The notes below the pieces were generated by a model. That model was not told where the DNA came from and did not search any database. It saw only the letters and a program-made list of their open reading frames with translations. Below are positions 4,603-36,959 of a stretch of DNA of 64,000 bases, one piece after another. Source of the stretch: a virus; IMG/VR virus record IMGVR_UViG_3300045988_101018, positions 32,001 to 96,000 of that record; one strand, given 5' to 3'. The translations under genes and the position numbers were made by a program. Numbering within the stretch: the first letter of the stretch is position 1; every line of letters starts with the position of its first letter.

Positions 4603-4607
4603 TTGGG

Positions 4608-11904: not shown

Positions 11905-11940
11905 ATACACTTATATTTATTGAATAATATGAGGGTGATT

Positions 11941-11984
11941 TGTCATCCTCTTTTTTATTATTGTTTGAAAGGAGGATGACAATG
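11941..11984 (+). promoter_or_regulatory. hairpin that sequesters the RBS of the giant gene
   Basis: tgtcatcctc (11941-11950) pairs perfectly with gaggatgaca (11972-11981). The second arm overlaps the GGAGG RBS and abuts the ATG at 11982. Confidence 0.3.
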
Positions 11985-22100: not shown

Positions 22101-22196
22101 ATAAAAATTATTTCTCAACGTCTCTGTTTTTTATTAATAGATATCTAATGGAAAATAAAGACGTTGAGAAATCAACATATTGAAAGGAGTGGTCGC

Positions 22197-23279
22197 ATGG
22201 CAGAAACAAAGTTTCTTGACAGCATCGGCTTAACTTATCTACTTGAGAAGATAAACGCGAAGTTTTCAAAGATAGGTCATAAACATACCAAGGCGGACAT
22301 TACTGACTTCGCACATGACCACGATGGGAGATATTATACCGAAACCGAAATCGACACAAAGGTTTCCGCGCTAAACTCTGCGATTTCTGGTAAGGCCAAT
22401 TCTTCTCATAAACACGCTGCTGCTGATATTACGTCTGTGAATGCTTCTGCCATTACAGGTAGAATTGCTGCTGCTAATTTACCTAGTTACGTAGATGATG
22501 TGCTTGAGTATGCTGGAACATCTAAATTCCCTTCAACTGGTGAAGCTGGTAAGATTTATACTGATACAACGACAAACAAGATTTACCGCTGGGGCGGATC
22601 GTCTTATGTAGTTATTTCAGACACTATTGCCTTGGGTGAAACCAACTCTACCGCCTACCGTGGCGATAGAGGTAAAACTGCTTATAATCATTCGCAGATT
22701 ACAAGCGGAAACCCACATAAGGTAACTAAGTCCGATGTTGGTCTTGGCAGTGTTGACAATACTTCTGACGCAAATAAAAGTGTTAAGTACGCCAAAAGTG
22801 CAACGGCTAACAACCCGATAAAAACAACAGGTACGGGCGCTGCATATGCGGCAATTGTTGATGGCATTACGGCTCTTACTATTGGTGTTAAATTTACTAT
22901 GGTGCCACATGTTACTAGTACCACTAGGGCACCAACTCTTAATGTGAACAGTCTTGGTGCTAAAAGCATTAGAATGAGACTAACAAGCTCTACTACGGCT
23001 ACAATTCAGCTTACAAGTGCTAGTTTCTTAACCGCCAATAAGCCCGTAAATGTTATGTATGACGGGACTTATTGGGTAATTGATGACTTTGCACAGCCTG
23101 ACGTAAACAGTCTATATGGCACTGTGCCGATAGAAAAGGTTCAAGCTCATATTGCAAACACTACAATTCACATCACTGCCGCTGAGCGTGCTAAGTGGAA
23201 TGCCAAAGCAGATATTACCATTGGCACTGCTGAACCAACTTCAAGTACGTCTGGAATTTTTTATATTCAGACAAATTAA
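22197..23279 (+). CDS. tail fibre protein with H-x-H His-box motifs (paralogue of 32524..33345)
   Basis: ATG after aaaggag. Motifs GHKHTKADITDFAHDHDG and SSHKHAAADITS. About 110 aa (VMVPHVTSTTRAPTLNVNSLGAKSIR...YDGTYWVIDD...LYGTVP) are shared with 32524..33345. Confidence 0.5.
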   Translation: MAETKFLDSIGLTYLLEKINAKFSKIGHKHTKADITDFAHDHDGRYYTETEIDTKVSALNSAISGKANSSHKHAAADITSVNASAITGRIAAANLPSYVDDVLEYAGTSKFPSTGEAGKIYTDTTTNKIYRWGGSSYVVISDTIALGETNSTAYRGDRGKTAYNHSQITSGNPHKVTKSDVGLGSVDNTSDANKSVKYAKSATANNPIKTTGTGAAYAAIVDGITALTIGVKFTMVPHVTSTTRAPTLNVNSLGAKSIRMRLTSSTTATIQLTSASFLTANKPVNVMYDGTYWVIDDFAQPDVNSLYGTVPIEKVQAHIANTTIHITAAERAKWNAKADITIGTAEPTSSTSGIFYIQTN

Positions 23280-23344
23280 TAGACGTTATTCTGCTATAAT
23301 ATAGCAAAGTAAAAGTTCTTTTATTTAAGAGGAGGTGTAGAATT

Positions 23345-23773
23345 ATGAAGATGTATTTAGGAGATGTACCAGTCAAGGCATTATATACGCATACCGATAC
23401 TGATGAGGGCGACATTACTGCGCCAGATATGCAATCTGGCATGATTGCTTTTGCCAAAGGTGTAAAATTGACTGGCACTGGAAAGGCGTTTGCCTTTGTT
23501 TCTTATGGACAAATGTCAACAAATAAAGCTTGGCCTGTTCCATCTATTATCAATATTATTGAAGTGTCTTCATTGACGTATCCTGTAAAAACGAATATAG
23601 CACTAAGTTCTATGAAAAACACAAATTTTTCTACAATCCAAAAAATTGGGGCTGTTACTATTAACGGAACAGCGTATGACATCACAGCGCAAGTTTCCAA
23701 TAATATGCTAACAGTAGGATGTTCTAAGGATATAGGTCTTGAAGTATTCTGCGGAAGGGATGAACACGTATGA
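23345..23773 (+). CDS. hypothetical protein
   Basis: RBS aagaggaggt upstream. 142 aa. Confidence 0.45.
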   Translation: MKMYLGDVPVKALYTHTDTDEGDITAPDMQSGMIAFAKGVKLTGTGKAFAFVSYGQMSTNKAWPVPSIINIIEVSSLTYPVKTNIALSSMKNTNFSTIQKIGAVTINGTAYDITAQVSNNMLTVGCSKDIGLEVFCGRDEHV

Positions 23774-23979
23774 GTGTAAAAAGACTACAGTATAATTATG
23801 CACAGATTGAACTTGACACTGGTTTGTGCGTTGGTTGCATGACTTGTTCTTATGAGATTACTATGGAAGGCTTTATTGCCGTTCCTAGTGCAAGTAATGA
23901 TTATGTTGGTAAGTATTATCATGATGGATCTTGGTACGAGGATGCAGAATTCACTATTCCTTGGACTTTTGAAGGTTAA
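23770..23979 (+). CDS. hypothetical small Cys-containing protein
   Basis: ATGA overlap with the upstream gene. Motif C-V-G-C-M-T-C. Confidence 0.35.
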   Translation: MSVKRLQYNYAQIELDTGLCVGCMTCSYEITMEGFIAVPSASNDYVGKYYHDGSWYEDAEFTIPWTFEG

Positions 23980-24005
23980 TTAAAAACTAAATACATAACC
24001 TTATT

Positions 24006-24046
24006 AGGGGTGTGAGTATTTCGCTTACGCCCCTTTTTATTTTTTA
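24006..24046 (+). terminator. rho-independent terminator
   Basis: ggggtgtgag...cttacgcccc imperfect stem followed by tttttatttttt. Confidence 0.5.
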
Positions 24047-24078
24047 TTATATAAAAATAAAAATTTGGAGGTGATTAT

Positions 24079-24177
24079 ATGGCATTACCATACGTAAGCG
24101 TGTCAGCAAGCAGCTCTGGCAATAGATATATCACTGTGACTGGTAGGATGAACTGGTTCTTCAGCAGAATAAAATGA
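24079..24177 (+). CDS. small ORF (32 aa) with a strong RBS
   Basis: ggaggtgattat then ATG. Too short to assess. Confidence 0.2.
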   Translation: MALPYVSVSASSSGNRYITVTGRMNWFFSRIK

Positions 24178-24256
24178 TAATTTTAAATAACAATTGAATA
24201 ATACGTGTACTGGGCATAGTGGGTTATTTATATTCTCCATGCCTTTGTTATCGAAC

Positions 24257-24270
24257 AAAAAAAAAAAAAA
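24257..24270. repeat. homopolymeric A14 tract upstream of the Listeria-Bacteroides repeat gene
   Basis: Fourteen consecutive A at 24257-24270, directly followed by TGA and then the TTG start at 24289. ORF 24194..24382 reads through the tract in a different frame. Confidence 0.8.
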
Positions 24271-24288
24271 TGAAAGGCGGTTGGTAAA

Positions 24289-25248
24289 TTGGCGAGTAAT
24301 AGCAATACTAAAAATAGCGGCAAGGGCGGCGTTACAACTGCGGTCAGCGCATGGTATGATAGCGAAACTGGGAATACAGTAAGACTTTGCATAAGTACGA
24401 GCGTTAAGGGAAGCTCTAATGGCCCGTGGGGCTATGGCGTAGTCGGGCAGTCTGGCTACGAAGGGAATGGAGCAAACTGGAAAGAGGTCGGTCGCGGAGT
24501 TTTTAACTATGCCAACACTGTCGTTAATGGTACAGCATATTTTACAGTCGGAAAAACCCATAGCGGATGGACTGCGAGCTGTTGGGCAAAGTCGTGGGGC
24601 GAAGCGGCTGGTGGATATGGCGCATACATTGCCAGCGATGATGTTCGCTGTAACGTATGGATCCCAGCAACGTCTAGATACACTCTTTCCTATAATGCCA
24701 ACGGTGGCTCGGGCGCTCCTTCGAGCCAAACAAAATGGCATGGCGAAACATTAACGCTCTCCTCTGCTAAGCCAACAAGAGACGGATATGAATTTGCTGG
24801 TTGGGGTACGTCTGCCACTGATACTGGCGTTAAATATGCTGCTGGCGGACAATATACAGGAAATGCAAGCATCACACTGTATGCTATCTGGACTAACGCT
24901 GCAAAGATGACTCTTGCATATAATGCCAACGGTGGCTCGGGCGCTCCTTCGAGCCAAACACATTTGATAAATACAACCTCTAAAATATCTGGTGCTAAGC
25001 CCACTAGAGACAAGTATGTGTTTTTAGGGTGGTCTACGAGCAGTTCTGCCACAAGTGCAACATATATCGCAGACGGGCAGTACACAAACAACAATTTTAC
25101 CAATGGCGCAACCGTCACGTTGTACGCTGTGTGGCTGAAGAAGAGTCCGAGTATATATATAAATTCATCAGAACATAGTTTCAAATCGGTTTGGGTAAAT
25201 GTGCCTTCTGGCAAGAGCCTTAAATCAATCTGGTTCAAGACTGGTTAG
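24289..25248 (+). CDS. Listeria-Bacteroides (Flg_new-type) repeat-containing surface-binding protein
   Basis: Two copies of Y-N-A-N-G-G-S-G-A-P-S-S-Q-T...A-K-P-T-R-D-G-Y-x-F-x-G-W-x-T-S...Y...T-L-Y-A-(I/V)-W, matching the Flg_new/List-Bact repeat consensus. Confidence 0.55.
   Translation: MASNSNTKNSGKGGVTTAVSAWYDSETGNTVRLCISTSVKGSSNGPWGYGVVGQSGYEGNGANWKEVGRGVFNYANTVVNGTAYFTVGKTHSGWTASCWAKSWGEAAGGYGAYIASDDVRCNVWIPATSRYTLSYNANGGSGAPSSQTKWHGETLTLSSAKPTRDGYEFAGWGTSATDTGVKYAAGGQYTGNASITLYAIWTNAAKMTLAYNANGGSGAPSSQTHLINTTSKISGAKPTRDKYVFLGWSTSSSATSATYIADGQYTNNNFTNGATVTLYAVWLKKSPSIYINSSEHSFKSVWVNVPSGKSLKSIWFKTG
24691..24960 (+). repeat. two identical 42-bp direct repeats (24691-24732 and 24919-24960) encoding the Flg_new repeat core
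   Basis: tataatgccaacggtggctcgggcgctccttcgagccaaaca occurs twice verbatim. Confidence 0.7.
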
Positions 25249-25267
25249 TTGATGGGAGGTAATTGAG

Positions 25268-25627
25268 TTGGCTGACGAAGTTGAATTAAGTGAAGTTGAT
25301 TACAAGCTTAAATATACAGGCGAGGAAGTCGATAGTCTCCTTGCGTTTATAAAAGATTTTAAAAATATCTACAACAAGATGAAGCGCGTTCAGGCTGGAT
25401 GTGAAGCTATCTCTACGACTACGGCTGGTGCAGATGTGATTAAGGTTATAGATTTCAGTGTTGCCTTTAACGGTGTGCCGAATGTTATGCTCATACCTAC
25501 TTTTCTAAATGATAAAACGGCTAAGGCAAAAGTTCTTAATATCACGTCTTCTAATTTCAAGGTTCAGGTAGTAGGAAATGATAACGATGCCACAACCAAC
25601 TTGTATTGGATAGCTACTGAACAGTAA
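25268..25627 (+). CDS. hypothetical protein
   Basis: TTG start after gggagg. 119 aa. Confidence 0.4.
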   Translation: MADEVELSEVDYKLKYTGEEVDSLLAFIKDFKNIYNKMKRVQAGCEAISTTTAGADVIKVIDFSVAFNGVPNVMLIPTFLNDKTAKAKVLNITSSNFKVQVVGNDNDATTNLYWIATEQ

Positions 25628-25674
25628 ATCTTGTTTGATTATATATCAAAGTTTGAATGAAAGGAAGTAAAAAT

Positions 25675-26118
25675 ATGAGTTGGGTTAATCTTAATGATGT
25701 TTATGTAAATCAGACTGGCGGAACTATTGCTGGCGATCTATCTGTAAACGGCGCTTTGACGGTAAATGATGGCAAGGGAACGAACACCACATACAATGTT
25801 GCCAATGAAATTACAACGTTGCGGGATTCCGTATCCCAATGTAAACCGCAATATAAAATTTATGCTGGGTCGAGGGTAATAAACATCACACAATCTTGGG
25901 GTACGCTATTTACAAAAGACGAATTTATATCCTCTTTTGGACGCGAATTTAATAATTCAAGAGACAGCATATCAGTTATGAATGGAGATGCGAAAGCCAA
26001 CAATATTACCGTTTTTGGTGTTTCGTATTATCCACAAGACGGCAAGTTGCTTGTTGCATTATCGGCGAACGGCGGCGGTGCTTTTAGGATCAATTATATC
26101 GTAGTTCTTGCTGAGTAG
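25675..26118 (+). CDS. shufflon expression locus: 56-aa constant N-terminus, then site-encoded D-S-V-S-Q, then the currently fused C-terminal cassette (cassette 0)
   Basis: ATG after aaaggaag. An in-frame copy of the 13-bp site in reverse orientation (gggattccgtatcccaa, 25823-25839) encodes D-S-V-S-Q. This is the only copy preceded by an RBS, a start codon and an N-terminal domain. The N-terminus carries a GGTIAGDLSVNGALTV beta-strand-like motif. Confidence 0.6.
   Translation: MSWVNLNDVYVNQTGGTIAGDLSVNGALTVNDGKGTNTTYNVANEITTLRDSVSQCKPQYKIYAGSRVINITQSWGTLFTKDEFISSFGREFNNSRDSISVMNGDAKANNITVFGVSYYPQDGKLLVALSANGGGAFRINYIVVLAE
25823..25839 (-). repeat. recombination site R0 (reverse orientation) inside the expressed gene
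   Basis: Its reverse complement, ttgggatacggaatccc, matches the core of R1-R8. Confidence 0.75.
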
Positions 26119-26152
26119 ACGTTATTGGCATACGCATATAAGAAATCATGCG

Positions 26153-26488
26153 CTAGTTGATATACCATGAACAAATACCCCTGTTAATAGCACCAGATAT
26201 CGAAGCAGCAACTTGAAACCCAATTGCTCCGTTTGGATGGACATAGCCATATGCGCATACGTTGAGTATGTAGCCATTGGCATTTGTCACACATGATGGC
26301 GAATAAATTGTATGGTCTGGTCGAAGATTTTCTGGAATGACATGTTCTATTCCCCAATACTCATTTGTTGATTGAGAAACAGTCCATACGAGTATACACG
26401 TGTATCCAACACGCCGAATATGAACGTATGAGGAACTACCCGGCGCTCCGTATAGCACAAGCGTATCGTCTTGGGATACGGAATGCTA
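26153..26488 (-). other. silent C-terminal cassette A (starts at the R1 forward arm with H-S-V-S-Q, ~105 codons)
   Basis: The minus-strand frame opens at the TAG inside R1 and reads CAT-TCC-GTA-TCC-CAA before the unique sequence. No RBS or ATG. Converges on the expressed gene, 35 bp apart. Confidence 0.6.
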
Positions 26489-26508
26489 AGTATGGGTTTC
26501 CGTATCCC
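26471..26508. repeat. site R1, a palindromic double site (forward arm 26471-26488 ttgggatacggaatgcta; reverse arm 26498-26508 ttccgtatccc)
   Basis: Seen directly. Cassettes diverge from the two arms. Confidence 0.75.
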
Positions 26509-26843
26509 TGACAAAAGACACATGCAAAGGAGCCAACGGCTGGGTTGTACAAACTGGCGCAATTACACGTACAGAAAATTGTGTAACCATGTGGGTAGAT
26601 GTTGTTGCTGGAAATAGCGCGAATAAGAATGTAAATACAACGTTTGCGACAATGCCGTCTGCTTTCGCGCCTAGCACATATAATATTGAACTTCCAGTAT
26701 TAGGGTTCACTACAACGTCTTATCCAATTAGCTTTTGGATAATAATCACTACAAGTGGAGAAATCAAAATTAAGCAATATGTACTACCGTCTAACACAGT
26801 TCTAGGCCAAATTAAATGTTGTTGTACGTATTTAAAAATTTAA
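26498..26843 (+). other. silent cassette B (plus strand, starts at the R1 reverse arm with V-S-V-S-L)
   Basis: The frame opens after the TAA inside R1 (gctaag) and reads GTT-TCC-GTA-TCC-CTG. It contains track ORF 26589..26843 and ends with TAA immediately before R1b. Confidence 0.55.
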
Positions 26844-26860
26844 TAGCATTCCGTATCTCA
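26844..26860 (-). repeat. site R1b (reverse orientation, 1 mismatch: tagcattccgtatctca)
   Basis: Seen directly. Confidence 0.7.
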
Positions 26861-27221
26861 GATTAAATTATTGTGGAGCGGGTCTGTGTACGGCGGCGGT
26901 TCATTTGTCGTACCAGAGCTAAAAGAATATACATTTGTAGAAGTGGTTACTTCAAATGCTGATGAAAATCATTGGGGCGTATTATGTTTTAATGACATGA
27001 ATGCATTAAAATCTACCGATGATGCATATGGCATGTGGGTATACGCAGATATACACGCTGGCTTGGATTACATAGTATCAATAAAATCAAAATTGGAAAT
27101 ACAGAAAGACTTAAAGACTGTGAAATTCACAGCTGGATATGCATTTAACGTAATGAAAGAAAACACCGTTATTACTTCAACGCAAAAACTTCGTATCGTT
27201 GCTGTGTATGGCGTTAGATAG
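26844..27221 (+). other. silent cassette B' (plus strand, starts at R1b with H-S-V-S-Q-I-K-L-L-W-S-G)
   Basis: TAG-CAT-TCC-GTA-TCT-CAG then an open frame that includes track ORF 26871..27221. Confidence 0.6.
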
Positions 27222-27227
27222 GCTGTA

Positions 27228-27581
27228 TTATAGATACAACATTCCAGATATCTTACGCACTCCATATGCATACATGCCGTTATAGTATGATGCATTTAAA
27301 GTCAGTTTTCCATCTGGGTCAAGCTCAACAAATACTGAAAATTGCGCAGAAAAATCTGCAACTCCTACAAAATATACATTTGTTTTTGGTCTATATTTTG
27401 ATGGCAATGATATGGACACTGACTTATATCCATTTCCACTTGCAGACATAAAGCCAGAAACCCTGTCACATATAACCTTTATCGCGTTTTGACTTGGAAT
27501 ATACACGACATTTATATCAAATGTTGCACCAACAAGGTCAACGCTATAGTCGCCAATTTTCTCTTGGGATACGGAATGCTA
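27228..27581 (-). other. silent cassette C (minus strand from R2, H-S-V-S-Q-E-K-I-G-D)
   Basis: Extends track ORF 27228..27506 up to R2. Converges on B', 6 bp apart. Confidence 0.6.
27564..27581 (+). repeat. site R2 (ttgggatacggaatgcta)
   Basis: Seen directly. Its last 3 nt (cta, read as TAG on the minus strand) form the stop codon of cassette D0. Confidence 0.75.
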
Positions 27582-27905
27582 TTTTAACTTTCCTATAACA
27601 GTTTCCTGTACGTACATTCCTACATTAGACATAGATGTTGCAGATGAAAGATAGCATCTAACGTCTGTTACATTCTTAATTTCGACATAATGTCCAATCC
27701 ATAATCCATTTCCAGTGACGGGATTAACATCTGCATATAAGATAGAGTCGTATATATCAGGGGCGTTAAACGCATAAGAACAAAAGTACAATGAACCAAA
27801 TAGAGCTGTTGCAGAAATGGTTTTATGAACTTTTCTTGTTGACAGAGCATAGCCTATTCCAAAATTAAAAATAGTCCAATCTCCATTTTGGGATACGGAA
27901 TACTA
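27579..27905 (-). other. silent cassette D0 (minus strand from R3, Y-S-V-S-Q-N-G-D-W)
   Basis: Extends track ORF 27579..27791. The stop codon lies inside R2. Confidence 0.6.
27888..27905 (+). repeat. site R3 (ttgggatacggaatacta)
   Basis: Seen directly. Confidence 0.75.
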
Positions 27906-27910
27906 GGTTA

Positions 27911-28161
27911 TTAAACTTCAATATAATAAACGATAACATTTATTTTTCTATTTGAATATTTCCCTGCGCTGCCGTCCCATGCCATAAGACGAACTGTTCT
28001 ACCCTGTTGTGCGTCAGTTCCCGTATGAAACGCATATCTCGCATCGTACATCCCACCAATTCCTATTGGAATCTGCCTTGCGTTAAGTCCCGTTTCGAAA
28101 TATCCATTAGGGTCTGTAGTTGTATCTATTTGTTTTGTTTTTATAATATGGGATACGGAAT
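27911..28161 (-). other. silent cassette D (minus strand from the R4 forward arm, N-S-V-S-H-I-I-K-T-K)
   Basis: Open frame of about 83 codons ending with TAA at 27911-27913. Not in the ORF track because it has no M. Confidence 0.5.
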
Positions 28162-28187
28162 TCCCATGTTTAGTATTCCGTATCCCA
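28149..28187. repeat. site R4, a palindromic double site (tgggatacggaat - tcccatgtttagt - attccgtatccca)
   Basis: Seen directly. Nearly identical to R6. Confidence 0.75.
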
Positions 28188-28527
28188 AATCAGTAATAGA
28201 GTATTGCTTTGGAGTGGAACGGCTGGCAAAGGTGTGAAAATTACGATTGACAGCGACTATTCATTTAAAGAATTCAAATCATTTTATTGCCTTACAAGTA
28301 TCGATAAAACAATCGGATTGCCGCTTGTAAGAAACTCTGGAATACAACAAGACCAGCATTTACACGGCATTACTGGATGGGATGATGGTAATACAACATA
28401 TACGCTTGTTGGGCTAATTAGAATAAATACAGAGACAACTGCGACCATTACGTCTATATCAAAACACGATATAAGTGGCAATGGTGGAATTGCTGGCAGC
28501 TTACTTAAACTATGGGGATGTTACTAA
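28175..28527 (+). other. silent cassette E (plus strand from the R4 reverse arm, S-V-S-Q-I-S-N-R-V-L-L-W-S-G)
   Basis: Extends track ORF 28204..28527. Shares the LLWSG motif with B'. Confidence 0.6.
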
Positions 28528-28530
28528 TCG

Positions 28531-28881
28531 TTACTTCCACATGCCTTTGACGTTATATTCTATAAATGCCACTGTAGTAGTATTGTTATATTTTATATCT
28601 TGGTTTAACACATATACTCCAGTGTCTACTAGCCCAATAGAAGCTCCTGTACCAGATAATACGTAAACGCCCTTTTGTCCAGAGCTATATATTGCAGAAG
28701 CGCCCTTATACAATAAACTAGTTAAAGGAAATGGAAAATCAACAGCGGGTGCAGTAACACTACCAATCCCTTTTATTTCTTTTCCTCCCCAAAATTCTGC
28801 AAGACCGCTATTCCATTTGCGATAAAACCAGATTCCAGATGTTCCCTGTGCGACAATATAGTCGTGGGATACGGAATGCTA
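28531..28881 (-). other. silent cassette F (minus strand from R5, H-S-V-S-H-D-Y-I-V)
   Basis: Extends track ORF 28531..28713 to R5. Converges on E, 3 bp apart. Confidence 0.6.
28865..28881 (+). repeat. site R5 (tgggatacggaatgcta)
   Basis: Seen directly. Its last 3 nt provide the stop codon of cassette G. Confidence 0.75.
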
Positions 28882-29144
28882 TAACGGTATAGCAATCCAA
28901 TTTATAGTACATTGTATGTGTTGATATTCTTGGTGACTATTCCAAACGTCCATAGTAAACCCAGTTGATGTTTTGTTATACACCATTTCCGTAACAGAAG
29001 GCCATCCCCATGTTTCAATTTTTGGAAACTGAAGAGATGTGATAACAACATAATCTGTTTCGATTGGTGTATTAAATTTAACCTGAACAACGTTATCATT
29101 TATGTTTGTTGTCATGGTAACAACACCTCTTTGGGATACGGAAT
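28879..29144 (-). other. silent cassette G (minus strand from the R6 forward arm, Y-S-V-S-Q-R-G-V-V-T)
   Basis: Contains track ORF 28879..29115. The stop codon is the TAG inside R5. Confidence 0.6.
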
Positions 29145-29170
29145 ACCCATGTTTAGTATTCCGTATCCCA
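29131..29170. repeat. site R6, a palindromic double site (ttgggatacggaat - acccatgtttagt - attccgtatccca)
   Basis: Seen directly. Confidence 0.75.
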
Positions 29171-29501
29171 GAGCGAATGGAAAGTCCTCAAGGGCAACAT
29201 CGGCTCCAACCATCTGGCGTACAAAATCTGCAATGGCATCTGCTATCTGAGCATCGATTGCGGCGGAGACTGGAGCATCAAGGCCAACGCGAAGTCCACT
29301 GTTGACATCATTACCATGCCAGACGAAGCATTGCCATCCACGTGGATTGTTTCAGCTGCTTGTTACCCAAAGGGCGGCAATTCAGACTTCGTTTGCGGTG
29401 TGACATTAAACAGGAAGACTAAGAAGCTATCCGTATGCAACTACTCGAACACGGCAACCAACTACTATTCCGTCACTTTCTGCTATCCAGTCAAAAATTA
29501 G
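29158..29501 (+). other. silent cassette H (plus strand from the R6 reverse arm, S-V-S-Q-S-E-W-K-V)
   Basis: Extends track ORF 29316..29501. Confidence 0.55.
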
Positions 29502-29504
29502 CAG

Positions 29505-29795
29505 TTATATGACATTCTTTTTGTATAGAATTACGAATGTAATTTTAAAATCATGCCATGTGCCTTTGTTTGTTACCTCGTTATTTTGAATGCTTGCATA
29601 TGCAGTGTCGTTATCGCGCAGACCAAATTGCGTGATAATACATGAACCTGTGTGGTTTGACTTCACCGTGGTAAGGCATACAGGCGTATAGCCATCGTAT
29701 TTCACGCTGGTGTCAAAGTCGGCAACCGCGCCATACCTTAATGATTTGGCGGCAGACGTGAAGCTCTTTGTCGTGTACTGGGATACGGAATGCTA
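29505..29795 (-). other. silent cassette I (minus strand from R7, H-S-V-S-Q-Y-T-T-K)
   Basis: Extends track ORF 29505..29705. Converges on H, 3 bp apart. Confidence 0.6.
29779..29795 (+). repeat. site R7 (tgggatacggaatgcta)
   Basis: Seen directly. Confidence 0.75.
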
Positions 29796-29797
29796 TG

Positions 29798-30102
29798 TTA
29801 AAAAATAACAAAGGTTGCCCTTACGCTTCTGTTGCCAGACTGTAAATATAAATATCCATTTTGATAATAGGCAGTTGCGTGTAGGCTTATGTCAGAAACA
29901 TAATAGCAATCTACACAATCGTCAGGCCGTGTATTATTTTTAATAAAATGAGATATGGGAAACACTGTAGAACATAGCGGTCTATTATTGTAAACGCATA
30001 TTAAACAACCCATTTTTGTTGTGGGTAAATTGACTTTAAATGATTCGTATGAAGTAGAACCGCTTGTTTTTGCCACCTCTACAGGAGCTTGGGATACGGA
30101 AT
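29798..30102 (-). other. silent cassette J (minus strand from R8, D-S-V-S-Q-A-P-V-E)
   Basis: Extends track ORF 29798..30076. The frame is closed by TAA at 30128-30130, so it is not fused to the recombinase. Confidence 0.55.
30089..30102 (+). repeat. site R8 (ttgggatacggaatcccc), the closest match to R0 and the outermost inverted partner
   Basis: Seen directly. Lies 6 bp from the recombinase stop codon. Confidence 0.75.
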
Positions 30103-30108
30103 CCCCAG

Positions 30109-31005
30109 TTAGCTTATAGCCCTTATTTTAGACTTTCTAGCTTTGTCGAATATCAGCTTCTCAACAGCCGCCTGAGCTTCTTGGCAGATTGTTTTACGAG
30201 GAACGATATAGTGATTATATGCTGTGCTAATCTCTGTATGACCAAGCATCATGGCAACGGTTTCGATGCCAACTCCTGCTTCAATTGCAAGTGTAGCCCA
30301 TGTATGACGCATGTTAGTCATAGATACATATGGTACACCCATCTTCTTACACTGTGACTTGATAGCACGAGCTGCTTTATCGGGAGATACATCACCGATA
30401 AGAAGCCCATGTCCTTTAATCTGCTTTAGGCGCTGACGTGCAAACTTAGGTAGATAGCAAGACCTAGTAGACTTTTCTGTCTTAGTTTTTACTGTGATGA
30501 TTTGACCGTTCACATATTGGCGCGACTTGCTAATACGCACCTCGCCAGTCTTAAGATTGATATCAGACCATTCGAGAGCGCAAGCTTCGCCACGGCGCAA
30601 ACCAAGAGTTACAGCACAGATAGTTACGGCTTCAGCCCAATGACCCCACATGCCGCGAAGCATCTCTGATACCTCTTGTGCGTCTAAAACATCTGGGCGA
30701 TAAGGCTTGGGGTGGTTTACTTCTATGTATGCGGTTGGATCGATAATATGTAGGCGCTTCTTGCGAATCCACCAACGGATGATTTGGCGAATACATTTAA
30801 ACGCTTTCTCTCCTGCGCCAGCTTTTTCAAATGAGTCTACCCACTCCTGCAAATCATCAGGGCAGATATCTTCAATCTCACATTCGCCCCATCGCGGAAG
30901 TACATGAAGACGCATTGATGAGTCGTATCCAGCTATGGTGGATGCCGCCATCTTCTGTGTTTTCTCGGGTAGATAATGCTGTTCATAGATGTCGATAAGT
31001 TTCAT
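30109..31005 (-). CDS. tyrosine site-specific recombinase (298 aa), candidate shufflon invertase
   Basis: R (LGLRRGEA), H-x-x-R (MRHTWATLA), LGHT and the Y of STAYNHY in canonical order. Sits directly beside the site array. Confidence 0.75.
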   Translation of the reverse strand: MKLIDIYEQHYLPEKTQKMAASTIAGYDSSMRLHVLPRWGECEIEDICPDDLQEWVDSFEKAGAGEKAFKCIRQIIRWWIRKKRLHIIDPTAYIEVNHPKPYRPDVLDAQEVSEMLRGMWGHWAEAVTICAVTLGLRRGEACALEWSDINLKTGEVRISKSRQYVNGQIITVKTKTEKSTRSCYLPKFARQRLKQIKGHGLLIGDVSPDKAARAIKSQCKKMGVPYVSMTNMRHTWATLAIEAGVGIETVAMMLGHTEISTAYNHYIVPRKTICQEAQAAVEKLIFDKARKSKIRAIS

Positions 31006-31021
31006 TTTTTAAATCCTTTCA

Positions 31022-31082
31022 TTGAAAAAATCCCACGCAATTTAACTCGAAATGAGTATATAACTTGCGTGGGATTTTTTCA
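31022..31082. promoter_or_regulatory. perfect 19-bp inverted repeat (ttgaaaaaatcccacgcaa ... ttgcgtgggattttttcaa, 23-nt loop) in the divergent promoter region
   Basis: Seen directly. Lies between the recombinase start (31005) and the divergent plus-strand gene (31200). Confidence 0.5.
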
Positions 31083-31199
31083 ATGGTGCATATAAATTTA
31101 TTTATATATAAATTAAAAGTTCTACAATTTTGAATATTAGAAAACACATTTTATGTTACAATATTAACCATATTTATAAACTCTAATGACCAAGGAGGT

Positions 31200-32036
31200 A
31201 TGTCTATGTACGAAGTGCCTTGTTTAAATCTTAACGGAGACACAATTAATAGATTCTATCAATGGGACATAGACCAGAAGATAGTTATCGACCTTAATGG
31301 ATGCGATGAGAGATATCTTCAGAATCCACCTGAAGTACATTTCTCTAATTCAAGTAGGAAAGAAGCGTTGGTTGTTCGCTCTACTGTAAAATATAGTGGT
31401 GATGATGTAGCTGTTCAAGATGACAGTGTGGCAACAATGCACGCAGGAGATATCATTATTGCCGATATTCCTAATATTCTATTGCAGGAGCCTTATCCTC
31501 TACTTGTCTATGTATATTTAACTGACGCAGATGATTCGTCTTCTCAGAAAACAATTCTATATAGTGAGATCCCTGTTCGTAAACGTGCAAAGCCAAGCGA
31601 TTATCTCTACGTTGAGAATATTACTCGCATTACTGCCGAGATGATTAAAAAAGAAATTGAATCTAGCACCGAGACGGCTAGAACAAATGCCATTAACGAG
31701 ATTAATAACGTTAAAACAGAGTCTATAGCTACTGTTACAGATACAAGAGATGCTGCTGTAAATACCATAACACAGACTAAGACAAACGCCGTTAGCACTG
31801 TTGATGAAGCCAAAGAAGGCTTTATCACCACTGGCAACGCCCTTGTTAATACCGCCACTGAGATTAAGAATAATACTCAGAAGACATATGATAATGCCGT
31901 TTCTGTTGCAAATAAGACTCAGCAGACTATTGAGACAAACATAAACACGCTCATCACAAAGAACGGCGTGTATCTTAAGACTGTTAACGATGGAAGCGGC
32001 AATGCAAATCTTGCCATTCTCGTAAACCAATCATAA
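31200..32036 (+). CDS. hypothetical structural protein (fibre-module associated)
   Basis: RBS aaggaggt upstream. The C-terminal motif VNDGSGNANLAI is shared with the next ORF. Confidence 0.45.
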   Translation: MSMYEVPCLNLNGDTINRFYQWDIDQKIVIDLNGCDERYLQNPPEVHFSNSSRKEALVVRSTVKYSGDDVAVQDDSVATMHAGDIIIADIPNILLQEPYPLLVYVYLTDADDSSSQKTILYSEIPVRKRAKPSDYLYVENITRITAEMIKKEIESSTETARTNAINEINNVKTESIATVTDTRDAAVNTITQTKTNAVSTVDEAKEGFITTGNALVNTATEIKNNTQKTYDNAVSVANKTQQTIETNINTLITKNGVYLKTVNDGSGNANLAILVNQS

Positions 32037-32051
32037 AGGAGGTGCGATGAT

Positions 32052-32519
32052 ATGTCAACTGCCTATCATGTTGAAACTATCGAGCGCATCACCGAGCAGA
32101 TGTTGACAGAGGAAGTAATCAGCGATGTAAACAAGATAATGTGGGACGCAGACACACAGGTTAAAAAGATTAAAACTGATGCTGTTAATGAGATTGAAAA
32201 AATTACTCCCGAAGCTGTCAATACAATCAACAAAATTGAACAAGATGCTTTAAAGTATATTGCCAGTGAAAAGCGGGATATGATTTTCACTTTGGGTGAG
32301 AATGATGCCGATGGTAATCCAGCAGTAAGGGGCAAACTGCGCAAAATTGATACTGATACTACTGCGATATATAATAAGCTTCTTGATGTCGCTCCCAATA
32401 CAGAAGCAAAGATACAGCAAAATATAAGAATTATGATTGTTAATGATGGTTATGCTATTGAGCTTGTAAACGATGGCAGTGGAAACATTGCCGTTAATTT
32501 AGCAAGGAGGTCTGTATAA
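32052..32519 (+). CDS. hypothetical protein (shares the C-terminal VNDGSGN motif)
   Basis: RBS aaggaggtg upstream. 155 aa. Confidence 0.45.
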   Translation: MSTAYHVETIERITEQMLTEEVISDVNKIMWDADTQVKKIKTDAVNEIEKITPEAVNTINKIEQDALKYIASEKRDMIFTLGENDADGNPAVRGKLRKIDTDTTAIYNKLLDVAPNTEAKIQQNIRIMIVNDGYAIELVNDGSGNIAVNLARRSV

Positions 32520-32523
32520 AAAT

Positions 32524-33345
32524 ATGGATGGAAATAAGATAATGAAATCCCTTGGCGGTCTTGAGGTGTATGACGAAGCTTGCAGACAGCGCGTTGTAGG
32601 TATTACAAGTGCTGGCACTGGTGCTGCATATACTGCTGCCGTTAAGGCAATTGAAGTTCTTTCTGTTGGTGCTAACTTTGTTATGGTGCCACATGTTACT
32701 AGCACTACTACTGCGCCAACATTAAATGTCAATGGTCTTGGCGCGAAGAATATTAGGATACGTATTTCTAGCTCTCCTAAATCTACTATTCAGCTGCCAA
32801 GTGAAGATTTCCTTACAAACGGCAAGCCAGTAAGACTTATATATGACGGTCAATATTGGATTGTAGATGATATGGTTCAGCCTAATGCCAATGGCCTATA
32901 CGGTACTGTTCCTGTGGCTTCTGGTGGCACTGGTGGCACAACTGTTGAAGAAGCCAGAAACAACTTGGGTCTTGGAAATACAAGCGGTGCTCTGCCTATT
33001 GCTAATGGCGGTACTGGATGTACAACACTTGCAGATGCTAAGAAGCTATTTAGCGTAGCAGATGATACTGGTGTCATTCCAGTATCGAGTGGCGGCACTG
33101 GTGCCAAGACCGCTGCTGATGCTAGAACGAATCTCGGTATTACTCTTGCCAATATCGGAGCCGCTGCAAGTTCTCATAAGCATGATGCTTCAGATATTAC
33201 AAGCGGCGCTCTTGCTATCGAGCATGGTGGTACTGGTGCAACAAATGCGAAAGCTGCCTTGAATAATCTCGGTATCAGATGGGGTAAAGATAAAGCCGAG
33301 GATTCTGGTACACCGAATACCATCTATATTCAGTTGCTTGATTAG
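32524..33345 (+). CDS. tail fibre protein (paralogue of 22197..23279)
   Basis: VMVPHVTSTTTAPTLNVNGLGAKNIRIRISS...YDGQYWIVDD...LYGTVP. The C-terminus carries G-G-T-G repeats. Confidence 0.5.
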   Translation: MDGNKIMKSLGGLEVYDEACRQRVVGITSAGTGAAYTAAVKAIEVLSVGANFVMVPHVTSTTTAPTLNVNGLGAKNIRIRISSSPKSTIQLPSEDFLTNGKPVRLIYDGQYWIVDDMVQPNANGLYGTVPVASGGTGGTTVEEARNNLGLGNTSGALPIANGGTGCTTLADAKKLFSVADDTGVIPVSSGGTGAKTAADARTNLGITLANIGAAASSHKHDASDITSGALAIEHGGTGATNAKAALNNLGIRWGKDKAEDSGTPNTIYIQLLD

Positions 33346-33357
33346 GTGGTGATGTAG

Positions 33358-34191
33358 ATGGCTGTTGACAAATATGGTGGCGAAGATACGCACTCTTATA
33401 GCTGGGGTACTGGCACAAGCCAAGCATATGTATGGGCTGAAGTGACAAATAAAGACGATGATACATCTTATGTACATGTAAAAGGATGTGTTTCATCTAA
33501 AGGCAATTATAGAATTAGTCAATATGGTGTTCATGTTCAATCTGGACAAAATGGGTCTAATCAATGGACTGACACAACCGCCGTATTTGACTATAATAAT
33601 TGGGTCGGCAATATTGATAGCACATGGGAAGTAGCCCGTGGAAAAAACGATAAAAGCGTAAATTGTTGGACTAAGTATTGGGGAGAAAAGGTAGGCGGCA
33701 TAGGCGCTGGTTCTTGGGCTGGCAGTGTATCTGTAGATGTTACAGTTCCAAAACGTCCATATCATGAGCATGGAACCCCAACTTTAACAACTATAAAGAC
33801 AACCGCACACTATGGCGAAACCATAACATTGTCTTTTGCCAAAAGTGAAACACAGGGCAACGCAAACTTTAAGCGCTTTGAATTATATCAAGGAACTACT
33901 AAGCTATATAGTGGTACTGATACAAGCTATACAGTTACACCTTCTGATGTCACTGGTGTAGTAGGTGGTACTGCAACATATACTCTTAAAGAAGTGCATG
34001 AGTGGTATGATGAATACCCGTCTAAAGAAACCTCAATATCTATTAAGGTACAGTCTGGTGTTGTCACTATATATGATGAGAATAGGGTAAAGCACGTTGG
34101 TCTTGTCACAATGTATGATGAGCAGCGTGTCAAACACTATGTATTGATTACTGCATATGACGAAAACGGCAAGGCTCATAATGTGGTATAA
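33358..34191 (+). CDS. hypothetical protein with three C-terminal Y-D-E-x-R-V-K-H repeats
   Basis: VVTIYDENRVKHVGLVTMYDEQRVKHYVLITAYDENGKAHNVV. Confidence 0.45.
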   Translation: MAVDKYGGEDTHSYSWGTGTSQAYVWAEVTNKDDDTSYVHVKGCVSSKGNYRISQYGVHVQSGQNGSNQWTDTTAVFDYNNWVGNIDSTWEVARGKNDKSVNCWTKYWGEKVGGIGAGSWAGSVSVDVTVPKRPYHEHGTPTLTTIKTTAHYGETITLSFAKSETQGNANFKRFELYQGTTKLYSGTDTSYTVTPSDVTGVVGGTATYTLKEVHEWYDEYPSKETSISIKVQSGVVTIYDENRVKHVGLVTMYDEQRVKHYVLITAYDENGKAHNVV

Positions 34192-34232
34192 TATAGGTAA
34201 CATAAGTTAGGCTGCGTTCTAATGAGAACATT

Positions 34233-35045
34233 ATGTCTGAAACATCAGAACAATCTTTTATTGGCACAATGTCAACCAATGAGATTTGGAGGGGCAATGA
34301 TACAAGTCGGTGTCTAACTGACGATCTAAATGCTATGGACACAATTCATGAATCTTTGCCAAACACTTATGCTGCTAAGAATCATACGCACTCTGGATAT
34401 GCTGCTAAAAACCACACTCACAGTTATCTGCCTTTAAGCGGTGGCACACTCACAGGAAATGTCACAACAAGCAAAGACATTAATATGGGTGTAGAAGCTG
34501 CTATACAAGGCAAGACATCAGACGGAACTTTGAAGAATGTATTCGTCCCCGTGTCTGCTGCTGGCAATACGGCAATTGGATATGACAACTATCAAAAGTC
34601 TGACGGAACAACTAATCTATACGGAAACTCTGTTCGTATTTGGAGTAAAACTGGCGGTCTTACTGGTTCTAATTATGGTGAAAATAAGGTTCTGTGGAGC
34701 GGTGCCTTATACGTAAAAGAGGATACTACTATTGCCCTTTCTGGCAATGTGTCTGCGCAACCTCATGGCATTTCTCTAATATTCAGTGCATATGACGTTG
34801 ACAATGCATCTCCTGTTAATTCTAGCTGGAACTCTTTCTTTGTTCCTAAATATGCTGTAGCAAATGATAACGGCGGTGGGTTCTCATTCATACTTGAGCG
34901 TGCTGGAAAGTTCTACAAGAAGTATCTTTATATTAATAATAATGAGATAAAAGGTAATGCTGTAAATAACAACTCAGCCCTTTCTCTTCATGGTCAAACA
35001 GTTGACAACAGAAACATGGTTCTTCGTTACGTAATCGGTGTTTAA
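34233..35045 (+). CDS. tail fibre protein (N-H-T-H-S His-box repeats, L-S-G-G-T-L-T-G-N)
   Basis: YAAKNHTHSGYAAKNHTHSYLPLSGGTLTGNV resembles His-box and beta-helix motifs of phage fibres. Confidence 0.5.
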   Translation: MSETSEQSFIGTMSTNEIWRGNDTSRCLTDDLNAMDTIHESLPNTYAAKNHTHSGYAAKNHTHSYLPLSGGTLTGNVTTSKDINMGVEAAIQGKTSDGTLKNVFVPVSAAGNTAIGYDNYQKSDGTTNLYGNSVRIWSKTGGLTGSNYGENKVLWSGALYVKEDTTIALSGNVSAQPHGISLIFSAYDVDNASPVNSSWNSFFVPKYAVANDNGGGFSFILERAGKFYKKYLYINNNEIKGNAVNNNSALSLHGQTVDNRNMVLRYVIGV

Positions 35046-35051
35046 ATAATT

Positions 35052-35088
35052 CAGGGAAACAGATTAATTTCTGTTTCCCTTTTTTTTA
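35052..35088 (+). terminator. rho-independent terminator
   Basis: agggaaacag - attaattt - ctgtttccct followed by T8. Confidence 0.7.
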
Positions 35089-35220
35089 CGATTTTTGGTT
35101 GCCTTCTTTTTCAATAATGTATTTTAAATCACTGCAAATAGATTGTATTTCCTTTTGAACACTTTCTAATCTAGATAATATTTTATTTACTGAATCTCGC
35201 TGTAATGTCATTGAATCCAT
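35086..35220 (-). CDS. small ORF (44 aa), possible excisionase/regulator; weak
   Basis: ATG to TAA with no obvious RBS. Lies between the integrase and the fibre operon. Confidence 0.15.
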   Translation of the reverse strand: MDSMTLQRDSVNKILSRLESVQKEIQSICSDLKYIIEKEGNQKS

Positions 35221-35557
35221 CTCCTTTTAGATATTAATTATAGTATATAAAAAAGAGGTTCAATTAAGAACCTCAGTGAGTGTAAGGTGTTGTATATTTG
35301 AGCCTAGTTGCGTAGACTTAGCCGAAGGAAATGGACGATAGTGTTTAAGCAAATCCATAAGCAAATATGACTCAAATACATACAACATTAATATAAGGTA
35401 TTGCTTAATTTAAGCAAATATAGGAAATCCCAAACCCTTTGTCTATCAAGGAGTCATAATTACTTACTCGTTGTTATCTCCTAGAACTCCAAATGCAAAG
35501 CCCTTATATATATTACTTTATTTATATGGCGTTTGCAAGCCTGTTTAGAAATTTTAC

Positions 35558-35650
35558 GCAAACGATACGCAACTGCTTTAAAACGTAAAAAATAAATTTG
35601 CTTAAATTTCTACGCAAATTGAATCTCTACGCAAATACGCAAATAATGAA
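35558..35650. repeat. five direct copies of (T)ACGCAA(A/C), candidate integrase arm-type binding sites / attP arm
   Basis: ttttacgcaaacgatacgcaactg ... tctacgcaaattgaatctctacgcaaatacgcaaataatg, just downstream of the integrase stop. Confidence 0.45.
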
Positions 35651-35668
35651 TATAAAAAAAGACTCCCA

Positions 35669-36865
35669 TTATAATAGGAAGTCTTCTGCTTTTGCCACTT
35701 CTTCATTCAGTTTTGTCTCTAACAAGTGGGTATATTTCAAAGTGGTAGCATAACTAGTATGCCCCATGATTCTTTGTATAAACACTGGATCTAATTTCTT
35801 TTCAAAACACCTAGTAGCAAACGTATGTCTAAACGCATGTGGATAGATGTGTTCCATTTTTTCTGGCGCTCTGCCTTCTATTGCCGCATTATATTCTTCT
35901 TTTTCGTTGATGTTCTTCAATACCTTTTCAATGTTATGGGACAATGCATATCTTGTTACTGGCGAGCCAAGTGTTGTCGTAAAAACTAAATCGCCTAACT
36001 CTGGTCGCAATCTCCATCTACTTCCAAGCTTTGCTTTGTATTGGTCTTGTTTTACCTTCCAATCTTTAAATAGTTCTCCTACATTCCCGAAGAACGGAAT
36101 AGTTCTGTAGCTATTGCTCGTCTTTGGCGTTGTGAGATATTCCATTTTCTTGCCGTCAACATAGCCAATGCTCAGGCTTCTTTGTATCCTGATTGTTTTG
36201 TTTTGCCAGTTTATATCCTGCCATTGAAGGCCGCTGAATTCACCGATTCTCATGCCAGTAAGTAATAAGATTTGGTAAGCTTCATTGTAATACTCATGTT
36301 CTATTTCATCTAAAAACATTTTCATTTCACGAGAACTCAAAACCCTACGTTCTTGAACAGCTTCATTCTCGTCTTTTATTGCTATATTAATACACGGGTT
36401 AGACTTAATGATTTGATTCATAACCGCTATATCCAAACACTCTCTGAGTACGCCAAGTGCTTCTCTCAGCGTTCTTGCTTTGAATTTACTAAGCAATTCG
36501 TTTGTTGTGTCTTGCATATTCATATGAGATATATTCTCTATCTTTTTATCCCCTATTGCAGCAATGTATGTGTTAGATACTTTTCTATGATATGCCTTTT
36601 TAGACACTTCCGACTTCAATGCTGGCTTTTTGTATTTTTCAAACCACTCTTCAAACCATTCAGACAGTGTAAGGTTTGGTCTAATATTCTTTTCGTCTCT
36701 TAGAATCTTAATTTTTTCTTCTTCAAAACGTTTCTTTAATGTTGGTAGATGCATATCGTATAAGCAAATTTTTGTACCATTAATCATTGCACGCGCTTCA
36801 AAACGTTTATCTTTTCGTTGACTGTATCCGCGCCCCAAGTCTTTGCCTTTAAGGTCTTTCCCCAT
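35669..36865 (-). CDS. int: phage-type tyrosine integrase
   Basis: 398 aa. R (LLTGMRIGEF), HAFRHTFAT, IMGHTSYATTLKYTHL. A repeat-rich non-coding region lies alongside. Confidence 0.8.
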   Translation of the reverse strand: MGKDLKGKDLGRGYSQRKDKRFEARAMINGTKICLYDMHLPTLKKRFEEEKIKILRDEKNIRPNLTLSEWFEEWFEKYKKPALKSEVSKKAYHRKVSNTYIAAIGDKKIENISHMNMQDTTNELLSKFKARTLREALGVLRECLDIAVMNQIIKSNPCINIAIKDENEAVQERRVLSSREMKMFLDEIEHEYYNEAYQILLLTGMRIGEFSGLQWQDINWQNKTIRIQRSLSIGYVDGKKMEYLTTPKTSNSYRTIPFFGNVGELFKDWKVKQDQYKAKLGSRWRLRPELGDLVFTTTLGSPVTRYALSHNIEKVLKNINEKEEYNAAIEGRAPEKMEHIYPHAFRHTFATRCFEKKLDPVFIQRIMGHTSYATTLKYTHLLETKLNEEVAKAEDFLL

Positions 36866-36959
36866 GATGTTAACACACCTTTATAATATATTTTTACAAC
36901 AATATTGTATCTTTGTTTTACGTAAATTACAAAAGATAAGTTCTATAAAGAATATTTGC

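Follow-up and report, generated by a model that had tools for sequence, protein, structure and literature searches.

A probable Rin-type shufflon invertase beside thirteen tail-fibre tip cassettes in a large gut phage

Rin was described by Mavrich et al. in 2018 as an armless tyrosine invertase of Bifidobacterium breve and B. longum prophages (PMC6109161). Its published crossover site, rix, is 11 bp long, TTCCCTAACCC. The receptor-binding protein of these phages has a constant N-terminal part of 168 amino acids (aa), and about 5 dissimilar C-terminal cassettes of 95-100 aa are available to it. The phages carry a separate lambda-type integrase, and inversions at rix were seen in sequencing reads (PMC6109161). 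A 2022 study placed a Rin system in Eggerthella lenta clade-1 prophages as well (PMC8778435). The subject here is a locus in the virus record IMGVR_UViG_3300045988_101018 of IMG/VR, of which positions 32,001 to 96,000 were analysed. This whole stretch of 64,000 nucleotides is called the window. A gene on its minus strand, here called rin, encodes a 298-aa protein. This is very probably a Rin-type shufflon invertase that swaps the tip of a tail fibre, with integration left to a second enzyme of 398 aa. The original prediction, made from the bare sequence, had proposed such a division of labour between an integrase and a shufflon invertase. It is now backed by the linkage of enzyme and site, by permuted arrays, by alternative fusions, by the predicted armless build of Rin, and by a relative, L024, in which a serine recombinase takes the place of the integrase.

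This kind of system was already published in 2018, for the Bifidobacterium prophages, and the locus is a large new example of it. Judged by its two nearest matches in GenBank phages, PMBT6 and ctl617, and by the similarity of the sites, it is a member of the Rin/rix family. The layout is alike: an armless tyrosine recombinase flanks the array, the gene with the constant N-terminus is at the other end, and a separate integrase lies elsewhere. The window's site, TTCCGTATCCC, has 9/11 bases in common with TTCCCTAACCC. The published phages are Actinobacterial siphophages of 36-40 kb and 60% guanine plus cytosine (GC), whereas the window comes from a phage of ~126 kb and 39% GC. The window has 13 cassettes where the published arrays have ~5, a constant part of 51 aa instead of 168 aa, and three head-to-head double sites. 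To our knowledge, 13 cassettes would make this the largest tyrosine-recombinase shufflon described.

The shufflon of plasmid R64/IncI1 (Rci, sfx, pilV) also has its tyrosine recombinase outside the array, multiple inversions at short asymmetric sites, and alternative C-termini of an adhesin. Rci differs in having 384 aa, with a C-terminal extension of ~100 aa and a canonical H-D-L-R, whereas the window's enzyme has 298 aa and no extension. In addition, the target of Rci is the tip adhesin of a plasmid's conjugative pilus, not a phage fibre. The serine-invertase switches (Gin of Mu, Cin of P1, Min of p15B) do swap tail-fibre C-termini by inversion, which changes host range, but their enzymes are serine recombinases, dependent on an enhancer and on Fis. 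Min is a multiple-inversion system (PMC6109161). No Resolvase domain was found in the 298-aa enzyme; Pfam gave only tyrosine-recombinase domains.

The recombinase, its sites and the cassette array

The main features of the locus are these.

30109..31005, minus strand: rin, 298-aa tyrosine recombinase, predicted to be armless, with core-binding and catalytic domains
30090..30102, plus strand: rin-proximal crossover site, 6 bp away from the stop of rin, marking the fixed outer edge of the invertible region
25826..30102, no strand assigned: shufflon array of 4.3 kb, 13 sites (core ATTCCGTATCCCA) and 13 C-terminal cassettes end to end
25675..26118, plus strand: expressed tail-fibre tip gene, 147 aa, constant N-terminus plus site plus cassette C1

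The open reading frame of rin had been predicted to encode a tyrosine recombinase, and the domain searches agree. Pfam places a Phage_integrase match at residues 109-268, the catalytic part (2.2e-16), and a SAM-like N-terminal domain at residues 9-58. PHROG 1, 'integrase', matches at 1.5e-45. The predicted gap of 6 bp between stop and site is also correct: rin ends in a TAA at 30109-30111, and the copy of TGGGATACGGAAT closest to it is at 30090-30102.

The claim that all canonical catalytic residues are present stands only in part. R137, K175, R233, H256 and Y266 are invariant in alignments of Rin relatives. The His of the H-x-x-R motif is not there: alignments to XerD, XerA and Rci put Thr230 in its slot (T230-N-M-R233). 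Alignment A2 has Thr at position 230 in 35/35 sequences; the most distant relatives, PMBT6 and ctl617, have Arg there. Since Y263 is not conserved, Y266 is the probable catalytic nucleophile.

The AlphaFold2 model of Rin has a mean predicted local distance difference test score (pLDDT) of 90.7. Its best PDB matches, over the full length, are the arm-less Tn1549 Int (82-397) and lambda Int (75-356), followed by Brujita Int and XerA. Because the model aligns full length with arm-less constructs, Rin is predicted to consist of core-binding and catalytic domains only, with no arm-binding domain. Against 10 relatives the pN/pS of rin is 0.02-0.11, so the gene is kept by strong purifying selection. 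With the 398-aa integrase of the same window it shares a common stretch of only 70 aa, 33% identical.

A comparison with Rci, Xer and integron integrases, as the original prediction had proposed, leaves Rin outside all three. A place among the Rci-like enzymes was rejected, as identity to the Rci of an IncI plasmid is 21% over 134 aa of the catalytic core only; hhalign gives a probability of 90% over that core. The nearest NCBIfam families are XerA, XerD and XerC, with scores 3-6-fold under the cut-offs. Xer membership was rejected on these scores (XerA 68.9 against 220, XerD 59.7 against 329.6, XerC 47.6 against 335, XerS 18.2 against 267). Integron integrases were rejected as well, at 32.9 against 265 (TIGR02249) and 18 against 435 (NF011946), with residues 206-264 alone in the match. 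So was the FimB/FimE type, with no match to NF007370 or NF007371 at E<=0.01. The PADLOC defence models matched neither recombinase of the window.

The Xer enzymes do share the layout of Rin: core-binding and catalytic domains, ~300 aa, no arm domain. Rin might then be a Xer-like resolvase of phage-plasmid multimers that happens to sit beside an array. XerA, XerD and XerC are the best sequence matches in both NCBIfam and the PDB, and there are hints of an episomal lifestyle: a ParM-like ALP_N gene is found near the integrase of relatives, and no low-GC relative lies in a chromosome-sized contig. Against this stand not only the scores, which are far under the cut-offs, but also the substrate and the genomic context. 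The system has no dif-like 28-bp palindromic site; it has 13 sites in coding frame at cassette boundaries, and homologues with the same arrays are found in integrated Actinobacterial prophages of 36-40 kb. We consider a resolvase extremely improbable.

The site TGGGATACGGAAT is found 13 times, with up to 2 mismatches, in 25826..30102. By chance the whole window should hold about 1.1 matches; it holds 14, a number reached in 0/100 shuffles. The lone extra match at 63522 (2 mismatches) was rejected as a part of the system, being at chance level. The starts and strands of the 13 sites are as follows.

Part 1: 25826-, 26472+, 26497- (2 mismatches), 26848- (1 mismatch), 27565+, 27889+, 28149+
Part 2: 28175-, 28865+, 29132+, 29158-, 29779+, 30090+

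If every site is oriented as ATTCCGTATCCCA and read as xAT TCC GTA TCC CAx, each of the 13 is followed by an open frame of 83-124 aa. This is always the same fixed frame, and there are few bases between one open frame and the next. The array therefore reads as 13 alternative C-termini for the 147-aa tip protein. The tip gene has its probable start at the ATG at 25675, behind the ribosome-binding site AAAGGAAG, and the gene call on the source contig agrees. Its constant N-terminus (25675..25825) encodes 51 aa. The site at 25826-25838 lies inside the gene and encodes D-S-V-S-Q directly after them (25825..25839), and cassette C1 follows.

The other 12 cassettes are silent, with neither a promoter nor a start codon of their own. 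Mostly there is a TAG in front of them, which is the stop of the neighbour and part of the extended site. The following list gives them with their closest homologue that is expressed elsewhere, from a survey of the 120 best of 412 homologues of the tip protein. Lengths include site-encoded residues where stated.

C2, 26153..26484, minus strand: silent, 110 aa including site-encoded residues; 97%-identical expressed homologue (P0331)
C3, 26497..26843, plus strand: silent, 115 aa; 96% (P0353)
C4, 26848..27221, plus strand: silent, 124 aa; 92% (P0309)
C5, 27228..27577, minus strand: silent, 116 aa; 96% (P0336)
C6, 27579..27901, minus strand: silent, 107 aa; 79% (P0346)
C7, 27911..28161, minus strand: silent, 83 aa; 90% (P0352)
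C8, 28175..28527, plus strand: silent, 117 aa; 95% (P0311)
C9, 28531..28877, minus strand: silent, 115 aa; 98% (P0344)
C10, 28879..29144, minus strand: silent, 88 aa; no expressed homologue among the best 120 of 412 proteins
C11, 29158..29501, plus strand: silent, 114 aa; no expressed homologue among the best 120 of 412 proteins
C12, 29505..29791, minus strand: silent, 95 aa; 97% (P0324)
C13, 29798..30102, minus strand: silent, 101 aa, directly downstream of rin; 89% (P0319)

Eight of the silent cassettes point the opposite way from the expression site, which means that one inversion reaches them. The remaining four (C3, C4, C8, C11) are direct and need a prior rearrangement. BLASTP among the 13 C-termini found no pairwise similarity.

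The AlphaFold model of the tip protein has a pLDDT of 80, and above 90 for residues 60-146. The site-encoded residues are at the end of a helix, after which a beta-sandwich head begins. In BFVD, which holds predicted viral structures, the best match is an 'L-shaped tail fibre protein' (E 2.4e-6, TMq 0.55). A fold search of the PDB with the same model gave nothing significant (best E 0.04). The neighbouring genes at 32524..33345 and 34233..35045 have PHROG tail-fibre matches. Together with the tip model, these confirm that the small recombinase gene lies within the fibre module, as had been predicted.

The fibre module appears partly duplicated on either side of the shufflon (22164-25627 and 31200-35045). 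Over 105 aa, g371 (22164..23279) shares 62% identity with g273 (32524..33345). Identity is 35% between g319 (24289..25248, which has Flg_new repeats) and g277 (33358..34191), and 31% between g278 and g155. The phage may thus have two sets of fibres and vary just one of them.

In a logo, 116 distinct sites of the low-GC clade are conserved from -5 to +12, as T-R-G-N-A TTCCGTA TCCC-A-A. On the left flank the T is found in 78/116 sites, the G in 116/116 and the A in 113/116. These bases mirror the right arm TCCCA (reverse complement TGGGA), which makes the site look like an imperfect dyad whose asymmetric centre is 7 bp long. Such a dyad is the standard layout of a tyrosine-recombinase core site. 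The functional site would be about 17 bp: T-R-G-N-A, then TTCCGTA as a 7-bp asymmetric overlap, then T-C-C-C-A.

At the centre of the site all four bases are seen, differing by clade. The window's clade has G. An A is found in the Collinsella and Aphodovivens loci as well as in L014 and L017 (84-85% identity), a T in L045, and a C in B. breve. The arrays of L014, L017 and L028 use variants with another centre base (TTCCATATCCC). That all four occur fits an overlap that needs to match its partner rather than be recognised by the protein.

The two arms of the site are unequal: the arm is TAGCA in silent sites and of the GGGA type at the expression site and the head-to-head sites. The sfx sites of R64 have a 7-bp spacer with one conserved and one non-conserved arm, and the window's arms are reminiscent of that asymmetry.

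Two sites are degenerate: the one before C3 (TTTCCGTATCCCT, 26497-26509, 2 mismatches) and the one before C4 (ATTCCGTATCTCA, 26848-26860, 1 mismatch). In this strain the tandem cassettes C3 and C4 may be less easily mobilised; other strains express homologues of both behind a canonical site.

There are three head-to-head pairs of sites, 12-13 bp apart, at 26472-26509, 28149-28187 and 29132-29170. The latter two are near-identical palindromic units of 39 bp, TGGGATACGGAAT-ACTAAACATGGGA-ATTCCGTATCCCA. Inversions could not create such pairs from a one-orientation array like that of L017, and most relatives have exactly one.

Relatives of Rin and evidence for shuffling

Rin has 390 homologues at E<=1e-10, and the variable tip protein has 412. 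The best matches of Rin in GenBank phages are in Bifidobacterium phage PMBT6 (34.5%, 9e-50) and Siphoviridae sp. ctl617 (38%). Both recombinases are annotated 'integrase' and lie inside tail-fibre modules. Directly after both genes there are repeats GGGTTACGGAA(A/T)GCTA in both orientations, which is essentially the window's TGGGATACGGAATGCTA. Closer enzymes, 71-72% identical, are found on Collinsella and Enteroscipio contigs, and rix-like repeats are found there too. A megablast of 24000-36900 against GenBank phages gave no match.

At some 35 loci from viromes, metagenomes and genomes, a site TTCCNTA(A/T)CC(C/T) is found just past the stop of the enzyme, wherever the contig extends beyond it. 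The distance is 3-30 bp where measured, and up to ~36 bp in L028. The relatives' arrays have 2-13 sites. An oppositely oriented partner site is found at the far end, in the constant part of the fibre gene; the rin-proximal site is oriented as rin in all relatives, and the outermost sites always have opposite orientations. Over these loci the identity of Rin is 35-100% and the GC content 38-68%, and across them the sequence of the site drifts along with the enzyme.

This linkage bears on whether the 298-aa enzyme might itself be an integrase, or second integrase, for a nearby att site, with the fibre repeats recombined by other means or not at all. The PHROG 1 'integrase' match and the 'integrase' annotation of its homologues point that way, and armless integrases do exist, with Brujita Int among the structural matches. 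Yet the site is 6 bp from the stop, in an arrangement that is kept over the whole range of identity and GC given above, and it co-varies with the enzyme. A 398-aa integrase is already present beside an attP-like region. In the Collinsella prophage L043, finally, the Rin homologue lies between lysis and fibre genes, beside a 3-site array, and not at the prophage end where it would face host DNA through an att site. An integrase role for this enzyme thus has very little probability left, and an invertase remains the preferred reading.

The arrays of relatives differ from that of the window in the way that an invertase would bring about. In BLAST comparisons the blocks of homology start and end at sites, and they are permuted and inverted. 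One block, 14516-15180 of the flipped window, matches 12139-11475 of L010, inverted and at 97.3% identity. At the same time, the rin flank and the N-terminal flank are collinear with those of the relatives.

L032 and L036 are near-identical strains that nevertheless differ in arrangement. Both match the window at 100% in the upstream gene, the constant part and C13. At the site, however, their constant part runs on into a cassette that the window lacks. C13 has the opposite orientation (100% nucleotide identity), and C2/C1 then follow as an inverted unit.

The survey of alternative fusions gives a similar picture. N-termini 98-100% identical to that of the window run, at DSVSQ/H, into homologues of C2-C9, C12 and C13, with best matches of 79-98%. 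This means that ten of the 12 silent cassettes have a homologue that is the expressed C-terminus elsewhere, among the best 120 of 412. In a further 24 fusions the C-terminus has no counterpart in the window. Over 116 distinct contexts the site core does not vary, while cassettes diverge to 74-98%.

A number of contigs (L034, L025, L019, L035, L012, L045) break off 1-32 bp from a site. Such ends are expected if alternative junctions coexist, because the assembly k-mers (31-141) are longer than the repeat. The breaks are circumstantial evidence that different junctions coexist in the samples.

A strikingly large part of the public contigs of this phage group stop in the array or at its edge, in many cases only a few bases from a site: L003, L006, L012, L019, L023, L025, L026, L032, L034, L035, L041 and L045. 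When metagenomes are assembled, the shufflon thus seems to act as a systematic point of breakage.

From these comparisons we infer that Rin catalyses inversion in this phage, and several observations weigh against that. L031, L033 and the source contig carry an arrangement identical to that of the window, so switching may be infrequent. The arrangements that were compared come from diverged strains (74-100% nucleotide identity), so that some differences could be due to homologous recombination or cassette exchange, and not to inversion by Rin. The canonical His of H-x-x-R is missing; as Thr holds across the family, its absence is probably tolerated. Many sites are directly oriented, and a simple tyrosine recombinase would be expected to delete the DNA between these. 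How deletion between direct sites is avoided was also asked of the Bifidobacterium system. Lastly, the receptor-binding identity of the variable protein rests on a moderate match between predicted structures.

Some of these observations would also suit an array that is a fossil. Rin would then be inactive now, for example through the change from His to Thr, and the diversity among strains would reflect old events and homologous exchange. The three independent assemblies that share the window's arrangement, the two degenerate sites and the missing His are what one might expect of such a relic. A pN/pS of 0.02-0.11 is not, and neither is a Thr230 that is fixed in all 35 members of A2, which makes it no recent lesion. 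A relic would hardly be expected to keep its site core invariant in 116 contexts while the cassettes diverge. Nor would it readily explain how 100%-identical flanks and an identical C13 go with different arrangements and expressed cassettes, or why contigs break at sites. A present-day fossil is therefore very unlikely, if a little less so than the resolvase or the integrase, and an active invertase accounts better for these data.

Some relatives have features of their own. L021 has two constant N-terminal segments (at 11650 and 12236; 87-88% identity) and only three sites, a layout that may mean two expression sites sharing one small array. The loci L018-L020 and L025-L027 are Coriobacteriia-associated (Collinsella, Enteroscipio) and have 60-64% GC, and their enzyme is 71-73% identical to that of the 39% GC window phage. 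Their genomes are otherwise unrelated to it. The GC content of rin, 45%, is above the window mean of 39%.

Upstream repeat, separate integrase and phage

Upstream of rin there is another conserved element.

31022..31083, minus strand: inverted repeat with perfect 19-bp arms, TTGAAAAAATCCCACGCAA and TTGCGTGGGATTTTTTCAA, upstream of the rin ribosome-binding site

It sits 19 nucleotides upstream of the rin ATG, and is also found in L002 (2031-2084). As RNA it would fold with -36.7 kcal/mol (z = -8.6). Both arms and the loop motif TATATACT are kept without change in 9 relatives, also in those whose remaining upstream sequence does not align. The ctl617 phage, with an enzyme that is 38% identical, has a comparable repeat (AAAATCCCAC..GTGGGATTTT) in front of rin. 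A promoter-like TTGAAA-17-TATACT overlaps the repeat, and its arm contains TGGGAT, the first 6 nucleotides of the crossover site.

The inverted repeat is a candidate operator or bidirectional terminator controlling rin. An operator role may mean that Rin regulates itself. Uncompensated mismatches in L011, L012 and L021 argue against selection purely on RNA structure. Rfam, at its gathering threshold, found nothing in the whole window, and the repeat is therefore not a known RNA family.

The second tyrosine recombinase of the original prediction was found where it had been placed, with a cluster of TACGCAA just 3' of its gene.

35669..36865, minus strand: 398-aa tyrosine integrase with an N-terminal extension, separate from Rin
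35300..35650, no strand assigned: attP-like intergenic region of 350 bp with two families of short repeats

The N-terminal extension is 65 aa long and has a sub-threshold match to the arm-binding domain of Tn916 Int (E 0.033). TACGCAA occurs in five direct copies within 88 bp (35555-35642), with one inverted copy at 35308. The whole window has 11 copies where 9.6 are expected, so the signal is the local cluster. The second repeat, TAAGCAAAT, has three direct copies and one inverted in 35300..35650. Both repeats are presumed to be arm-type sites of the 398-aa integrase, and an attP with such sites would look like this region. No attB was identified for this enzyme, and no tRNA was found that could mark attP.

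The integrase slot lies between the DUF3310 gene and the fibre genes. In L024, which has a 99%-identical Rin, this slot holds a 466-aa serine recombinase with a Resolvase domain (4483-5883). The integration module is therefore interchangeable, swapped here between phages that are syntenic otherwise, while rin stays with its array, and this supports the division of labour.

In L039/L040 an actin-like, ParM-type gene (ALP_N, 11788-12885) lies beside an 85%-identical integrase. The contigs with close homologues of the integrase are all <=179 kb, and none is chromosome-sized. This group of phages may persist as phage-plasmids, in which case the task of the 398-aa 'integrase' would be less certain.

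The window is 100% identical to a human-gut contig of 125,707 bp in ENA. The phage of ~126 kb and 39% GC encodes a DnaE-type polymerase, RecD2, DnaB and NrdD. Its DnaE is nearest to that of the Clostridioides phage-plasmid pCD1602_4 (50%) and those of large Bacillus phages, and its lysis and surface domains are of Gram-positive type. By these genes, the host is probably of the Bacillota type.

Proposed mechanism and meaning

In the proposed mechanism, Rin would act on the 13 short sites across 25826..30102. Rin dimers would bind two inverted sites, and strands would be exchanged at the edges of the overlap with Y266 as the nucleophile. If the expression site recombines with an oppositely oriented site, the DNA between them would be inverted. 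As a result, the constant 51-aa N-terminus would gain a different head domain of 78-119 aa, fused in frame. Other inverted pairs, on recombining, would reorder the array, and could bring the direct cassettes C3, C4, C8 and C11 within reach. As rin lies outside the outermost site, it never flips. The biological role would be to switch receptor or host specificity.

Similar enzymes in dissimilar genomes suggest that the module of rin and array has been transferred horizontally across very different phages. The module seems to have passed between low-GC gut phages of ~126 kb and the small, high-GC siphophages of Actinobacteria, because Rin is 72% identical across 39% and 63% GC. A broader statement, that Rin/rix is a widespread, horizontally mobile cassette for fibre diversification, with a 17-bp site of free centre base, possible autoregulation by Rin and its largest array here, is offered tentatively and may well not hold in full.

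The two published host groups of the Rin shufflon, Bifidobacterium and Eggerthella prophages, are Actinobacterial. This locus takes the system beyond them, to a family of large phages of low GC that recurs in many human-gut metagenomes. The arrays also matter for the quality of assemblies, because contigs break there. With its compact enzyme and a site of ~17 bp, the system is a candidate for a programmable inversion tool with many states. It could also serve in studies of how inversion comes to be favoured over deletion by a tyrosine recombinase that lacks an arm-binding domain. For the phage itself, a 13-way switch of the fibre tip could let one genotype cover many variants of the host surface, which bears on the prediction of host range in the gut virome.

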